A DNA stretch of 63,108 nt, counting the filler, from Rhabdomonas costata (lineage: Eukaryota): NCBI GenBank assembly GCA_019059605.1. It is 52 parts of 52 records of this genome, joined end to end, with 100 filler letters (N's around TTAATTAATTAA, not from the genome) between each part and the next. Parts side by side here need not be neighbours in the genome. Positions count along the whole stretch, not along the records: positions 6,081 to 7,197 come from JAHMHO010027803.1; 51 more parts are not named here. The stretch is one strand, 5' to 3'. This document shows, in pieces, positions 5,731 to 61,893 of the stretch. The position numbers and the translations under genes are program-made. Each line of letters opens with the position of its first letter. The stretch's first letter is position 1. Below the pieces are notes generated by a model, which worked only from the letters and a program-made list of their open reading frames with translations, searched no databases and had not been told where the DNA came from.

Positions 5731-6204
5731 CTGCGCACGTCAAGCACACAAACGGAAAGATATTGCGAGCACGCGTGGTGATGATGATCTCCCAAAAAAT
5801 GAGAAAGCGCGCACTCCCTCGAATGAGCAAGGAGAAATTGAGCGTAAAAATCTACTTTTTAGCAATGACGCAACCCCCCGCATCGAAATATTTGCGTACC
5901 CACCCTTACTTCAGTGCCAACCTGGGTACTTTTCGTGGTGTTCGAAGACAAGTTAGAAAACGACCAAAAACCCCAACAACNNNNNNNNNNNNNNNNNNNN
6001 NNNNNNNNNNNNNNNNNNNNNNNNTTAATTAATTAANNNNNNNNNNNNNNNNNNNNNNNNNNNNNNNNNNNNNNNNNNNNTTCGCTGAAAAATGGGGGGC
6101 GCAGTCTGCTGGTGCAACTAAAACATCGGAATGCACTGCCCCAATCCAAACAGCAAAACATGGTTTCACAATTGAACTAGAAAAGGAAAAGGGAACCACT
6201 ACAC

Positions 6205-7167
6205 GAGAAAACGTCCCCGAAACCGAAACCCATCCCCTCCATACCTCCTCGCCGGTAGGCTGTATTCCTCGCGTCCACCCTCGGCGAAACGTGAGAGAAG
6301 TCCGGCCGCTCATCCACAATCGCAACGCAACCTCCTGCATCAAGCACAGCGACTCTCTCACTCTCAAGAATGAACACGCGTCATGCCATGCCATGACACA
6401 GCATTTCCGGAAAACTCAAAGCAGAAGCCAACAACACCCTCGGCATGCCTGCAGGTTGGTGGGAGACGTTGTCCGCGTCGATGCGTGGCCTCACATGAGA
6501 GAAATCAGGCTTCTCATCAACAATGGCGACGCAGCCTCCTGCATGCAGGAAACAATCGCAGCACAACGAAAAATGCTCTCAAGCGCTCGCAAAAAACAAA
6601 AGAAGACAACAATAAAAGGCAGGACGCCTTCCCCTCCCCTCCCATCTACCATTGCGGGATGATGGTCACCCTTATCCTCGATACGATACGTGGTCATAAA
6701 ATCACGAAGAGAGGTTCTGAAACAATTGCAATCCACCCCGCTCTTCACGGGTCTGAATCTAATCTTGGCCAATGTTGATGCAATCATTTACCAGGGCTTC
6801 GCGTTCCAGTTAGATAAACTTGCGCATCACACTACGTCTAGCTTTCTCGCGAAAACATCGAAACGTTCCCCGAAACCGAAACCCATCCCCTCCATACCTC
6901 CTCGTCGGTAGGCTGAATTCCTCGCGTCCACCCTTGGCGAAACGTGAGAGAAGTCCGGCCGCTCATCCACAATCGCAACGCAACCTCCTGCATCAAGCAA
7001 AGCGACCTTTTCAGGCGGATGCACAGACATACACGGGAATTAAATGGCATCCCCGAAAAAAGCAAGGCGCGCCTGCGGGTTGGTGGGAGAGGTTATCTGC
7101 GTCGATACGTGGCCTCACATGAGAGAAATCAGGCTTCTCGTCAACAATGGCGACGCAGCCTCCTGCA
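6205..7167. repeat. Tandem duplication (~625-650 bp period) of a two-exon unit including flanking intron sequence
   Basis: 6218-6346 is nearly identical to 6871-6998, including intronic ccgaaaccgaaacccatcccctccatac. 6447-6543 is nearly identical to 7071-7167. Confidence 0.9.
6245..7162 (-). CDS. Protein with tandem 30-aa Tau/MAP2/MAP4-like repeats; exons 7073-7162, 6898-6987, 6449-6538, 6245-6334
   Basis: Four exons, each exactly 90 nt, phase 1-1, each with a CAG acceptor. Donors are GC, GT, GC, GT. Spliced product: GGCVAIVDEKPDFSHVRPRIDADNLSHQPA / GGCVAIVDERPDFSHVSPRVDARNSAYRRG / GGCVAIVDEKPDFSHVRPRIDADNVSHQPA / GGCVAIVDERPDFSHVSPRVDARNTAYRRG. The exon structure is strong. The Tau-like assignment is by-eye alignment. 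Confidence 0.7.
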
Positions 7168-9742
7168 AAAGATAGCGATGCTTGCAATGTGACGGAGNNN
7201 NNNNNNNNNNNNNNNNNNNNNNNNNNNNNNNNNNNNNNNNNTTAATTAATTAANNNNNNNNNNNNNNNNNNNNNNNNNNNNNNNNNNNNNNNNNNNNGGG
7301 GGTTGTGTTCCTCCAAAAGCACAACAGAGGTCGCCACCGGAGATTCCTCCTGACACAGGCGAGCAAGCATCATCCGGCGCAGGAAATGGTCGAATCATCG
7401 CCAGGTTAGGGCGCGGATATTGCACGTGCGAGTGTATGCACTGATACACCAGGCCGGGGGGGGGGGGACTGTGACTCTACCTCTCCTTCCCTTCAGGAGC
7501 GTACTGGTTTTGTTTATCTTATTGTGTATGTGCAGCGCTGGCTACTGTATCAATCAATCAATCATTTGCCAATTCCTCGACTTTAGGGCCTGTAACACAT
7601 AACTTCATTGATGACCGAGATGCTTTGAAAGGGCCCTCTGTGAAATTCTTGGGCCTCTGGGAGTCTTCCCCAAAGGTCCTCTGGCGGGTTCCTGATCAAG
7701 GGTGCTTTGGGGGTACCTTTGGGGGTTCCGGGGGCGGCCGGCCATCCCAGCCCATGGGGGCTGCCTGCGACGCCGAGCCCAAGTGCTCGGGGCGACCCTG
7801 AGCCTCCACCGCAGCGTCCAGGGCGTCACGGACCTCCCTTTCCCTCAGCAACTCACCCAGGTCACACCTGAGGCGACAGTGAGTAGTGCCGTGGCGAGAA
7901 AGGAGAGAAAACCAGAAAGAGAAGAGGGGGGGAGGGATGCTGGCAAGTATTCTGTGACCAATTCGGGAAGGATCGCTTCGACATCCTTTGGCTTGTCTTT
8001 CACCCAACCACTGTACGTTATGATCAGTGAGGTACAGCTATTTTCACACGAAAGGAAAAAGGAACGAACGAATGCTTTCGCTGCAGGTACCCGCCAATGC
8101 GGGGACCCCAGAAAACGGAAATCTTATCCCCCACCCCACACCACTCGAGGGAAGGACACAAGGATGCAAAAATCCTTATGTGATAATTTTCTTCTTTGAT
8201 GCATATGGCCACCTGTGATTGTTTGTTCGCGTTCGAGTGTGTTCGTGCGACAAAAAGGAAACACACGCGAACAAGGTGAGCGTGGAAGAAATGGAAAGCT
8301 GTCCCCACCCAGACGCGTGCAGCCGGGGTGCTTGAGAGAGAGAGAGAGCAGGAGGAAGCACCAGCACCAACCACCCCCGAAACCAATGCGTCCAGTGACC
8401 AAACATACGCACCCACANNNNNNNNNNNNNNNNNNNNNNNNNNNNNNNNNNNNNNNNNNNNTTAATTAATTAANNNNNNNNNNNNNNNNNNNNNNNNNNN
8501 NNNNNNNNNNNNNNNNNGGTGTTGGGGCACAATAATTCCCGGAAGTGAACTACGTTGGCAGATTTAAGAAAAAGTAGCAGTCTAGGTGAAGCGGCTTATT
8601 TTTGGTGCTGAATGAGCACAAAGAAGAAGCTTGCACTGTTTGCCAGAGTAAATTGTCCGCCGCGATATGGCTGCTGGTTTTGCGGGTTGATTGGTCTCCT
8701 TTTGTGGCCGATGCCAATCTGATTCAACTGCTTTCCGATGGACGATGGGGAATGGTACCGAATGGTACACCTCCATCTCTGGCGTAACCGATTGCTGCCG
8801 TTGTGTTTGAGCAGCTAACCGATGGGTGTTTAGCCTGGTTTTTGACCGGTGTACACCAAGCGGTTAGCGGGAGGGAACGGTTTTCAACCTTGTGCTGCAT
8901 TTTGGATTTTGGCCTCCCTTCTCCCATTGCCTTTCAGGGGTTCGGCTACTTCACCTGTCGGATATGCGGCGCCAGATGGAAGACATTAAGCCACAGGCGT
9001 TAAGTCTAGGGTACGGAACTGTCAGCTGCTTCCGCTTATGTGCCATTGAACCACCGACCCTGTCATGTGCGCCTGTTTTTTTGCGTACAGGACTTCCTTG
9101 AAGTGTGCGAGTGGTTCGTTTTAGGTGCGCACATGTGTTTCGCAGCTGTTTTTGCCGCCCGCGTCTCACACCAACCGCCACCGGAGGGCTTGTTCTCTTG
9201 TTGCTTTTCTCTCACTGCCCGTTCTCTTCTATGCTCCATCTCTCCGCTATCCTTTTCCCTTATGGATCAAAAGGGTAATCGGGATATGTTGCGGCCAAGT
9301 GTGCTTCTAGGTTTCTTTCGTTATTTCAATGTCCTCATTTTTTATCGTGCGCTCAGAGATTTGGGTCATGAACTGCACATATCATGCACTCAGAGATTTG
9401 TGTCATACATTGCACGAAAGGGTGTATGTCTCTGTGTTTGTGACCGGGGGCTGGCGTGTGTTGATTTATTTTTCTAGCAGCCTGGCTTAGCCTCTCGCTG
9501 AGCCGAAACATTCGTGTGTGTTGTCTATGTTGTGTCGCCCTGCTCCGGAAGCGTTGTCACAGCACGGCTGAGAGGTTCTGTTCCATTGCCAGGCGAAGAG
9601 CTGCGATTTCGGGGGACAATGGAACACCACCCNNNNNNNNNNNNNNNNNNNNNNNNNNNNNNNNNNNNNNNNNNNNTTAATTAATTAANNNNNNNNNNNN
9701 NNNNNNNNNNNNNNNNNNNNNNNNNNNNNNNNTTGTTGTGGT

Positions 9743-49845: not shown

Positions 49846-50959
49846 TTTGTTTTTGATATTGTAATAATAAACTATCGAAATAACATATGTCAATATTTTT
49901 ATCAACTGATATTGTTACAGATACTTTATTATCTGCCCAATATTTTTGTAATAATGCTGTTATTTCTAGTTGTTCTTCAATCGTTAAATCTACTTTAACA
50001 CCTTTAATTTCTATTGGAAATTCAATAATCATATTTTCTTTAACAACTTGATCTTCCTCAACATGATATCCTAACGCAATATATTTATTAATCAATTCAT
50101 TATTTTTATTAATTCTAACTCTTCTGATGTAATGATTTGCAATAGGAAAATGAACACCGGGTGTTGCACCTGCTAATAAAGAGATTGTACCAGATGGTTT
50201 AACAGATGTAATTTTTATGCTTTCATTAATGTTTAAGATTTTTGATAATTTTTTATCATATTCTTTTAAAAATTTATATCCTTCTTGTAACCATTTTACT
50301 AACGTTGTTTTGTCATATTTTTCTAAAAATTGTGCTATTCCTGATAATGATAGACCAATACGTCTGTTTTTCTCTATTATCTTATCAGTAATATCATAAC
50401 CTGTTTTAACAAGTGTGACAATTTTAGCATATAGAAAAGCATATTTTAATGCTTTCAAAAACTCGTCAAAATCTTTAATTCTATTTAGAAATATTTCTAC
50501 TAAATTACATACTTCATCACTTTCTAATGATTGTTCTGCACAAGGATTATTACCTGCAGCTAATATATCTTTATCATCACGTGGATCACACATACGTGAA
50601 TATTGTTTGATATTATCAAGCCATATTAAACCCGGTTCACCATTATTCAATATTCTCTTACATATATCGACATAAGATGTTTCTTCAGTTGACACAAATA
50701 CAGAGTTATTTGCTGTCCATCCAAACTCTAATCTTTCTGGATTTTTTTCATAATCTTTTAAATCCATAAATTCTACATCTTTTCTATCACCAATCGATAT
50801 TGTTGCACTTCTTCTATTAAAACTACATGTACAACGTGCTAATATACACATAATATCTGTTATATTTCGCGATGTCATATATGTATTTGTTATTGTATTT
50901 AGAATTTTTGTAATATCATCATGTGCTAATTTTAATACATCACTACCAGCCGATACTCC
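49846..50959 (-). CDS. nrdJ: Adenosylcobalamin-dependent class II ribonucleotide reductase, monomeric RTPR type (partial, open at both ends)
   Basis: Uninterrupted ~370-codon frame with NRRSA, GWTANNS, NGEPG, catalytic NPCAEQSL..EVCNLVE, NRRIG, TSVKPSGTISLLAG and YWADNKVSVT. Contig is roughly 25% GC with no introns. Confidence 0.93.
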
Positions 50960-51126
50960 ANNNNNNNNNNNNNNNNNNNNNNNNNNNNNNNNNNNNNNNN
51001 NNNNTTAATTAATTAANNNNNNNNNNNNNNNNNNNNNNNNNNNNNNNNNNNNNNNNNNNNGGGTTTTTTGTGTATGCATACATAGAAATGCATACATAGA
51101 AAACGCAAAGACAAGTGATGCCTCAC

Positions 51127-51412
51127 CTCCATGCGAGCCGCCAGGTTGACGGTCTTGCCCCAGGCGTCGAACATCGGGCGCTCCCCCGGAAGCACCCCCA
51201 TCGTCACAGGGCCCACACTGATTCCATACCGCATCGCGCACCGGAAAAGGGAGCCCTTGGTCACCGAGGGCTGTGTGGTGGTGCCCGTGACGACGCTGCT
51301 GTGGATCGAGGGCCTCTTCTTTTTCTTTTTCGCGTTGGCGTCTCGAGCAATGATGGCGCTGCGCTCTGCCATGGCCTTCACACACGCCCCGGCGTCGGGA
51401 TGCTCATACCGT
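51127..51412 (-). CDS. Class III adenylate/guanylate cyclase catalytic domain exon
   Basis: MRYGISVGPVTMGVLPGERPMFDAWGKTVNLAARME then a GTGAGG donor. Catalytic N...R is present, and Asp in FDxWG suggests adenylyl specificity. Confidence 0.9.
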
Positions 51413-52695
51413 CTGCGGAGAATACAATGCCCCCAAATAACAAAAGATGCGGAAAAACAGAGTCCACAAAGGCACCAGACCCATCCAGGCTTTCACTTCG
51501 CCCAGAAGGGAAGCCGATTAAAAAATAGGGAGTATGGAAGGAAAAACAAGCCTCACAAGCTCGTCACTGCTTCGCGTCACACCAGCAAGTGGAAGGATAT
51601 AAATGATTAAAGAATCATCAGAAGGAGAGAGAATCATCAGCAGGAGAGAGAATCATCAGAAGGATAGTCACAGACATTCTTTCAGTGGGGTCCGACACGC
51701 CTGCACTGCTGATCACAACACAATCGTAAAATTAGGCATCCAAGGAAGCAGAAAGGTCACGGAAACGGCGTCTGCGCAAACAACTTGCACAGTTAGCGTG
51801 CACAGTTCACCGAAAAAATGACTGGCATAACTTCACCCGAGCCGGCCGTAAGGTTGGGAACAATGATGGCCAGTGACTGCTAGAAGCGTGCCTCAGCGAA
51901 GCTTACTTTTGGCAACGAGTGACGGACCATCGCCGTGCAAAATGTCTACGCATGCTCCCCAGATGGAGAACCCCGAATACCGAATACCGAAATCCAATCA
52001 GAACCCCAAACTCACATACCCCCCTACTCCCCCAAAGGGGACCATCTAGCCCAATTCGGAAGGACCCTAAGACCCTTAAGATTCCCCAACACCCAAACCT
52101 TGGCTTTATAGCCAGAGTCTAACCTGACGTTACACCTCTTTCATCGAGAAAACTCAGTGAAAAACCCCAAAACCCNNNNNNNNNNNNNNNNNNNNNNNNN
52201 NNNNNNNNNNNNNNNNNNNTTAATTAATTAANNNNNNNNNNNNNNNNNNNNNNNNNNNNNNNNNNNNNNNNNNNNCTCATTGCGCACTCTCACGAAACCG
52301 CATCGAATGGACCCAAATTCATGATATACCGTACACAACCCCGCGGCACTCGTCCATAATGATACGCGTGTAAATAGTAAAAATTCAAGATGCTGATATG
52401 GTGTGTGGGACAACCGGTAGATTTGTTCTTACGTGGAAGTTTAAGGAAATGGTGGGTGACGTTTTCTTTTATTGTACTTATGCAAGCAGACAAAGTGGAG
52501 TTTTACATGTGACCTACTTCCTTTTTACGTTGCTGACACAGTCTCACTTGGCCACCACTAGACCTTACCCTTAATTAGCGGTTGTCCCACGTTCACGAAA
52601 TTTGCCCTGTCCCGTGGAGATTCCTGTGCCCCCCTCCTCCCCCCGCGAATTCTTGTGAATGTGTGCTTGAATGTGCATATGTGATGTGTGTACAG

Positions 52696-60780: not shown

Positions 60781-61100
60781 GTGGTCAAGTGGTAAATGAG
60801 ATTTTGAAGGTGACGGATAGAGCCAGACAGATAGATGCCAAGATGGTACGGTGACAACCTCCTCGACTGTATATCCAGAAATGTCATTGGCTCTTTCCAA
60901 AACAGCGACATGAAGATCGGATTTCTATCATTCACAATGCTCGGCAACCCATGATATCTATCTGACTAATTCCCACCAAAACAACTCCGCTATATCGTAA
61001 GCATTCATCGTATTGTGGCATGGAATCAACACCACCATCTTGGCATCTATCTGTCTGGCTCTATCCGTCACCTTCAAAATCTCATTTACCACTTGACCAC
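60781..61100. repeat. Perfect ~67-bp inverted repeat anchored at the contig start, probable fold-back chimera
   Basis: 60781-60847 is the reverse complement of ~61033-61100 and duplicates integrase coding sequence. Confidence 0.85.
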
Positions 61101-61893
61101 CTCCAGAGAACTTCAATTGCTCCTCTGGCATTTTGACGAAGTCCATGGAGATTGACTCCCACTTGTTCACTAGCACCTCCAGCACTTGCATTTGGCCTCT
61201 GGACAGATGATGATCCGCCTTGCAACGTTGAAATATATAACAAGTCCGCAAGTTTCTCTTGATGTTCTTAAACACAAACCTCCTCTTTATCATCGCTGAA
61301 GTTCTAGCCACTCCCCAATGTCTTGCAGCTGGGGAATCATGATAACGCGATATAACTTCTCGCTCCCGCTGTTATGGCACCACAATCTTCCCTTTATCCC
61401 ATATACGTCCATGATGACACTTCGTCGTGTCCAGCAGCTCTGCCGTCGTCACGTTGAAGTACTTTATCCGTATAGCTGTGTCGAGCCAGTAGTCCGTCTA
61501 CCAATCGTCTGGCTTCTCTTCTGGGCCAACGCGCATGGGCGCACACAGCGGTCCGTCGAAAACCACTGACACAAAACATTCACCTTCCTGTATCGCTCCA
61601 AGGCTCGTTTCATTTAGCGGGTGACGCGACAACGCGTCCGATGCCACATTTAGTCTTCCATGAACATGAGAAATATTCAGCGAATATCTCTGCAACTACA
61701 ACATCTAACGTGTCTTGGAGACGGTCGGGGGTTCTTCTGCAGGTAGCTCAACGCTGAGTTATCCGTGTGCACTCTAACTTCTGCCACCACAAGGTAATGT
61801 ATCCACTCCTCCAATGTATCCACAAACGCAAACATTTCCTTCTCGTGGACCGGGTAATTCTTTTCTGCAGTCGACAGCTTTCTAGACCGGTAT
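60849..61893 (-). mobile_element. Degenerate Ty3/gypsy LTR retrotransposon pol (end of RNase H and integrase)
   Basis: LQRYSLNISHVHGRLNVASDALSRHP; CYIFQRCK; KWESISMDFV; KMVVLIPC; PSIVNDRNPIFMSLFW. RNase H precedes integrase, as in gypsy. Many stops and frameshifts. Confidence 0.88.

Follow-up and report, generated by a model that had tools for sequence, protein, structure and literature searches.

The window analyzed here, a stretch of 63,108 nt from the Rhabdomonas costata genome assembly GCA_019059605.1, strings together 52 unrelated pieces, each around 1,116 nt long, with 51 identical artificial linkers (44 N + TTAATTAATTAA + 44 N) between them. The order of the pieces carries no meaning, and every gene in the window is truncated. 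One piece (positions 6081-7197; 1,117 nt) carries on its minus strand a gene with tandem repeats that resemble the microtubule-binding repeats of tau, MAP2, and MAP4 (Pfam family PF00418). This repeat gene is confined to that piece and cut at both ends, and since the finding lies wholly there, the other pieces of the window are not genomic context for it. The GC content of the 2-kb interval that holds the repeat contig (0.492 for 6001-8000) is typical of the window. We view the contig as probably an internal fragment of an intron-containing nuclear gene encoding tandem PF00418-homologous repeats of an "Asp-core" type (R-(I/V)-D-A opposite the K-x-G-S of tau), for which we infer microtubule binding.

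Exons, introns, and duplication of the repeat unit

Four exons of the repeat gene lie between partial introns at the two contig ends, with repeats of an A type and a B type in strict alternation (Table 1). A sequence-only reading of this DNA had proposed four exons of exactly 90 nt in phase 1-1 that splice into an uninterrupted array of 30-residue repeats, a product that the track of open reading frames (ORFs) never assembles, and at the level of sequence all of this was borne out at the proposed coordinates on the minus strand. AG precedes all four exons, the donors are GC after A and A' and GT after B and B', and a G stands at position +5 of all four. Every exon starts with GA and ends with G, so that each phase 1-1 junction, including those that would form by exon skipping, rebuilds a GGA glycine codon. 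Predicted splicing of the 360 nt of exon sequence yields 119 codons without a stop, and every intron read-through contains one: in-frame reading into intron 1 meets a stop (ORF 7011-7241), and reading past exon B' stops after 21 codons (ORF 6177-6380). Unspliced, the repeats sit on one stop-to-stop ORF each of 65-76 amino acids (aa), which is why the array is absent from any ORF list. The four translations (30-31 aa) are invariant in 21 of 31 columns. Given the predicted phases, any subset of these symmetric exons is joinable in frame, and exons could be added or dropped without breaking it.

Table 1. Exons and introns of the repeat gene on piece 6081-7197, in 5' to 3' order of the minus strand.
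Feature	Positions	Strand	Properties
Upstream intron, 3' end, cut by contig end	7163-7197	minus	ends AG (...ttttgcag before exon A)
Exon A, A-type repeat ending ...N-L-S-H-Q-P-A-G	7073-7162	minus	90 nt, phase 1-1
Intron 1	6988-7072	minus	85 nt, GC...AG, G at +5
Exon B, B-type repeat ending ...N-S-A-Y-R-R-G-G	6898-6987	minus	90 nt, phase 1-1
Intron 2	6539-6897	minus	359 nt, GT...AG
Exon A', A-type repeat	6449-6538	minus	90 nt, phase 1-1, identical to exon A at 84/90 nt
Intron 3	6335-6448	minus	114 nt, GC...AG, G at +5
Exon B', B-type repeat	6245-6334	minus	90 nt, phase 1-1, identical to exon B at 87/90 nt
Downstream intron, 5' part, cut by contig end	6081-6244	minus	starts GTATGG

The unit of A and B is duplicated in tandem together with its introns at a period of about 650 nt, and the array has thus grown by exon duplication. 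Next to the exon identities given in Table 1, matching aligned columns between the units amount to 49% before A/A', 55% in the A-B introns, and 59% in the 150 nt after B, the last figure including 30 identical nt at the intron start. Synonymous and non-synonymous codon changes stand at 5:1 between A and A', 2:1 between B and B', and 12:10 between the two types, which differ at 31 of 90 nt with 12 of 22 changed codons synonymous. No fifth copy emerged when all six frames of the window were scanned with a profile (81.6-84.5 bits for the four copies, 7.5 bits for the next piece). Intron 2 contains no further repeat-like piece by profile scan (best 3.8 bits) and no Pfam family on either strand, and no Pfam family fits the plus strand of the contig or its other minus frames (best E 0.055).

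Conservation between the two units reaches beyond the B exons. On the minus strand, the first 30 nt of the introns after B (6868-6897) and B' (6215-6244) are identical, and 19-26 nt upstream of each B exon are likewise conserved; the introns around the A exons diverge at the exon border. The 30-nt stretch stays open in frame (M-E-G-M-G-F-G-F-G) and might act as a splicing signal, provide an alternative donor or extend the exon, or have arisen by gene conversion.

A relative of the array, P0002, is a read-through ORF from a 1.5-kb contig that is 78% identical and shows A-type, B-type, and A-like blocks from around residues 1, 71, and 144, with stretches unlike the family in between. The read-through after its A block starts with G-M-P, as it does after A' in the window, and as far as sequence can tell, this shared feature fits a conserved GC donor.

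Homology to tau-family repeats

PF00418 was the sole Pfam family to match at E ≤ 10, in three of the seven repeat-bearing reads, and no other microtubule-repeat family (e.g., of the MAP6/STOP-SAXO type) was found in these reads at that threshold. Exon A scored 24.9 bits (E 1.9e-5), exon A' 24.8 bits (E 2.1e-5), and the A' read-through 21.7 bits, with the curated cut-off of the family at 27 bits. In the comparison with PF00418, the check suggested by the sequence-only reading, the A repeats thus matched below the cut-off, and the B repeats gave no match on their own. The cut-off is exceeded by P0002 (33.4 bits) and by two Euglena longa proteins (46.6 and 56.0 bits).

A profile built from the four repeats of the window and searched against 1.84 billion representative sequences retrieved 27 proteins at E ≤ 1e-3. 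Fifteen of these carry an organism name, comprising five animal proteins (three fish tau, two echinoderm tau-like/MAP2-like), seven proteins of early-diverging fungi, two of E. longa, and one bacterial protein. With seven fungal and two E. longa proteins among 15 named hits, the earlier statement that tau repeats are known mainly from animals understates their range, and a Rhizopus homologue has already been mentioned in one study (PMC4815063). The single bacterial match, a Lacticaseibacillus LPXTG surface protein (P0016), shows no tau-like columns and was considered a false positive.

A second profile, made of 32 repeats taken exclusively from the animal hits, detected all four repeats of the spliced array (80.0 bits, E 2e-23), compared to 6.1 bits for the best of 2,000 shuffles and 7.1 bits for the best other ORF piece of the window. 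Per exon, it scored 31.4 bits for A, 18.8 bits for B (E 2.8e-4), and 18.7 bits for B'. Direct alignment of the window and animal repeat alignments by hhalign gave a probability of 97.0% (E 8.5e-11), and a profile search of the PDB returned four hits at E ≤ 1, each of them a tau or MAP2 chain and two of them (6CVJ and 6CVN) from microtubule-bound models. The proposal of tau/MAP2/MAP4-type repeats is thus supported by the only matching Pfam family, by the recovery of tau and MAP2 with profiles, and by the hhalign result.

Whether the array is a protist member of the family or a convergent mimic had been left undecided by the sequence-only reading, and we judge homology to be likelier than mimicry because intermediate forms connect the repeat type of the window with canonical repeats. 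The repeat region of one Asp-core protein, P0008, matches 152 proteins; among the 120 matches listed, and query aside, almost all bear PF00418 and most are animal tau/MAP proteins. Its best named match among those listed comes from a chytrid (E 1.8e-48), and a tau-like protein of a clam matches at E 1.8e-32. At the level of sequence, P0008 therefore ties the Asp-core type firmly to the tau/MAP family. A correct gene model would be given the PF00418 label, which makes the repeat gene a further member of a known family.

Other searches for relatives added less. The ESM Atlas returned only bacterial rows below 0.8 and was uninformative, and a metagenome scan with the repeat alignment retrieved no relatives with DNA context. 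A separate cluster around P0003 consists of ORFs of 117-156 aa that contain little else than tau-like repeats with the core H-R-I-D-A-F-N (PF00418 at 40.6 bits) and sits on NCBI and JGI/IMG contigs of up to 49.8 kb; scans of metagenome, viral, and prokaryote-genome collections found no genomic context for P0003.

The Asp-core variant among known repeats

The proposed in-register alignment, with one residue deleted and K-x-G-S exchanged for R-(I/V)-D-A, was confirmed by alignment to 6CVJ and 6CVN. R-I-D-A in the A repeats and R-V-D-A in the B repeats stand opposite K-(I/C)-G-S of tau, with a one-residue gap at tau K294, and the four contiguous 30-aa units formed by predicted splicing are one residue shorter than the canonical 31-32 aa. 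The repeats end in H-Q-P-A-G-G (A) or Y-R-R-G-G (B), with an invariant G-G and a proline only in A. The turn asparagine (tau N265/N296) is present in all four, and the cleft histidine (H268/H299) is kept in A and A' and is a tyrosine in B and B' (residue roles after 10.1101/267153). Among 881 repeats in 153 proteins (mostly animal tau/MAP), 722 have a G-S core and 39 a D/E core, which is the majority type in both E. longa proteins, in the chytrid Irineochytrium annulatum, in P0004 and P0008, and in the close relatives of the window repeats.

Animal tau, MAP2, and MAP4 repeats have the same order of columns as those of the window (G-G, V-x-I-(V/I), D-(F/L)-S-x-V, a basic residue followed by I/V, D-N, and H-x-P-x-G-G), but the window repeats differ from them by their length of 30 aa, a P-G-G-G weakened to P-A-G-G or R-R-G-G, their non-basic character, and the alternation of A and B. 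In exon layout, the repeats resemble the MAPT repeat-2 cassette exon of vertebrates, which measures 93 nt in human. According to the study that also mentions the Rhizopus homologue (PMC4815063), the second repeat of vertebrate MAPT is encoded by one symmetric cassette exon between phase-0 introns, and duplications have produced 5-7 repeats in some teleosts. The layout of one repeat per symmetric exon is therefore analogous in the window and in the MAPT repeat-2 cassette, but intron positions are not shared because the introns of the window lie in phase 1 inside the glycine run and those of MAPT in phase 0. The C-terminal pseudorepeat of tau, MAP2, and MAP4 also lacks K-x-G-S and has a basic-x-D core (e.g., ...A-K-A-R-T-D-H-G in fish tau), yet it occurs only once and is truncated, with no D-N...H-x-P-G-G tail, whereas the Asp core of the window sits in full-length, iterated repeats.

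Outside animals, the E. longa proteins P0012 and P0026 (EukProt EP00668 P005448 and P011829) read ...(V/A)-(R/K)-P-R-(I/V)-D-x-x-N-L-x-H-x-P-G-G-G and share the one-residue deletion. They differ in being basic (mean of +2.2 per repeat) and in the number and placement of the repeats, of which only 2-4 stand at the C-terminal end, after two WWE domains. This architecture of two N-terminal WWE domains and C-terminal Asp-core repeats is one that we had not seen described. Against the window profile, the E. longa proteins score 46.2 and 37.7 bits, compared to 162.8 bits for P0002. In the protein P0036 of I. annulatum, eight of ten detected repeats carry the A-P-R-V-D-A-R core of the B repeats, but the repeats are 28-29 aa long, number around ten, and are fused to C-terminal ankyrin repeats. 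The E. longa and chytrid proteins are the closest named bearers of this repeat type but are no close orthologues. Repeats of Glomeromycota share K-P-D-F-S-x-V with the window, although these and the repeats of Mucoromycota differ by keeping the canonical G-S core; UniRef names PF00418 proteins of both fungal groups "Microtubule-associated protein".

The introns allow a comparison with Euglena gracilis, for which one study gives GTGTG as the GT consensus, tracts rich in C, and GC-AG borders in 659 of 28,337 introns (PMC11170887). Measured against these values, the introns of the window are similar in the G at +5 but start with GTATG or GC, have T-rich tracts, and are GC-AG in two of the three complete cases, so that there is no clear fit.

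Proposed microtubule binding and alternative explanations

The tau repeat family is intrinsically disordered. As given in a structural study, a microtubule-bound tau repeat runs extended along the protofilament for about 80 Å, with alpha-tubulin at its centre and contacts to three tubulin monomers; repeats bind in tandem, and 14 contact positions are named per repeat (10.1101/267153). Of these named positions, the A repeats keep or conservatively replace eight (V275, I277, K281, L284 by F, K290 by R, C291/I260 by I, N296, and H299) and lack counterparts of six (K274, L282, S289, S293, K294, and K298). The B repeats keep seven, with tyrosine in place of histidine. The spliced array would extend along a protofilament like tau with one repeat per tubulin dimer, and its contacts would be made by the conserved V-x-I, D-F, R-I/V, N, and H/Y positions. 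Since the serine of K-x-G-S is absent, we propose that MARK-type phosphorylation would not act there to turn binding off, and the array is expected to lie along protofilaments without a phospho-switch of the Ser262 type.

Several observations weigh against this interpretation. Net charge per repeat is -2 for A and A' and +1 for B and B', compared to a family mean of +2.48 over 638 repeats with only 6.4% at or below zero. Unless flanks beyond the contig supply charge, a tau-like electrostatic pull from the acidic microtubule surface would thus be weak. Both serines that form hydrogen bonds with Glu434 of alpha-tubulin, according to the same structural source, are replaced (by proline and alanine), and the aspartate adjoins that site. 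Binding may hence depend on off-contig flanks or be weak, or the array may have another function. On the side of family membership, single A repeats remain about 2 bits short of the PF00418 cut-off, B reads find no Pfam family alone, E-values of the PDB profile search are weak (0.027-0.8), and the animal-only profile, whose members had been collected with the profile of the window, does not count as fully independent of it. In addition, the spliced product of the repeat gene was not found in the protein collections searched.

The charge deficit, the lost Glu434-bonding serines together with six of 14 contact positions, and the lack of any description of an Asp-core member in the literature searched could all be accommodated if the repeats were homologues or mimics of tau that do not bind microtubules and instead serve another filament, a partner protein, or as a disordered spacer. 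We regard this as unlikely, given that the kept contacts are precisely the hydrophobic and basic ones plus the turn asparagine and the cleft histidine, and that strong purifying selection acts on exactly the conserved columns of the family. Absence of K-x-G-S moreover does not preclude a role in binding, since deletion of the tau pseudorepeat region, itself devoid of this motif, raises the dissociation rate more than 6-fold (PMC5221586) and this pseudorepeat thus strengthens binding. The same selection bears on the idea that the exons are a decaying or unexpressed relic, i.e., a pseudogene fragment or a part of repeated DNA with frames that merely happen to be open. A gene that is cut at both ends, whose 650-nt unit is repeated, and whose spliced protein is missing from the collections could be such a relic. 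This is nonetheless very improbable with four of four exons free of stops and frameshifts, exon length and phase exactly kept, splice signals intact at eight of eight borders, synonymous changes outnumbering non-synonymous ones 7:2 between the unit copies, and 12 synonymous A/B changes across conserved residues.

There is also some chance, though a small one, that the contig derives from a contaminating or associated eukaryote, e.g., from a chytrid or another fungus, and represents an ordinary fungal tau-family gene. The window strings together unrelated 1.1-kb contigs, of which at least one (49846-50960; 38% GC) deviates in composition and encodes a class II ribonucleotide reductase without introns. 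The B repeats also have exactly the P-R-V-D-A-R core of the Irineochytrium protein, and fungi contribute seven of 15 named profile hits. However, the GC content around the repeat contig is typical of the window, and its introns, with GC-AG borders in two of three complete cases and a length of 359 nt in one, are unusual for fungi. The closest relatives P0002, P0006, and P0010 furthermore sit on similarly small contigs and in no named fungal genome. On balance, we therefore prefer an internal fragment of a nuclear gene for microtubule-binding Asp-core repeats.

Tau, MAP2, and MAP4 are generally regarded as proteins of animals. Since the repeat is also present in one euglenid at least, in early-diverging fungi including chytrids, and in the intron-rich source of the window, the module would either have originated well before animals or have been transferred between lineages. 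No paper in the literature searched dealt with tau-family repeats in protists, euglenids included, or with repeats of the Asp-core type, though supplementary species lists might name some. As a natural experiment for tau, the Asp-core variant keeps the hydrophobic, basic, asparagine, and histidine contacts in the absence of the Ser262-type switch and could therefore show which contacts are sufficient for lattice binding and when MARK-type regulation arose. One-repeat symmetric exons at intron positions other than those of vertebrate MAPT would be a second, independent case of setting repeat number via exon duplication. More tentatively, and with considerable doubt, the tau repeat could be an old eukaryotic module that did not first arise in animals or opisthokonts, with an Asp-core branch, so far undescribed, in euglenids, chytrids, and the source of the window, which was amplified here into a constitutive lattice binder. 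If so, the phospho-switch serine either never existed in the Asp-core branch or gave way to a fixed acidic residue, and the A/B array built from duplicated single-repeat exons would be an unregulated binder suited to stable cortical or flagellar microtubules.

Other genes in the window

Rfam yielded no match in the whole window, tandem repeats gave no hint of the source, a putative ABC-transporter ORF had no detectable relatives, and Pfam searches with 238 further ORF pieces (92 mostly of at least 100 aa and 146 of 76-99 aa) returned only an integrase and a sub-threshold DUF1467. The integrase match is the zinc-binding domain of a retro-element integrase at 60961-61371 (minus strand; PF17921, 33.7 bits). 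The compositionally deviating piece mentioned above (49846-50960, minus strand) is filled by an intronless ORF, of which 371 aa are read, with matches to PF02867 and, at E 1.3e-53, to 1L1L, the monomeric class II ribonucleoside-triphosphate reductase of Lactobacillus leichmannii. It lies in the most AT-rich stretch of the window (GC of 0.379-0.426 per 2 kb compared to mostly around 0.47-0.50) and could stem from contamination, from a phage or bacterium, or from gene transfer. The neighboring piece contains an exon-sized match to the catalytic domain of adenylate/guanylate cyclases (51061-51492, minus strand; PF00211, 37.2 bits), which in the PDB is nearest to the C2 domain of animal-type membrane adenylyl cyclases, a resemblance that does not point to a taxon.

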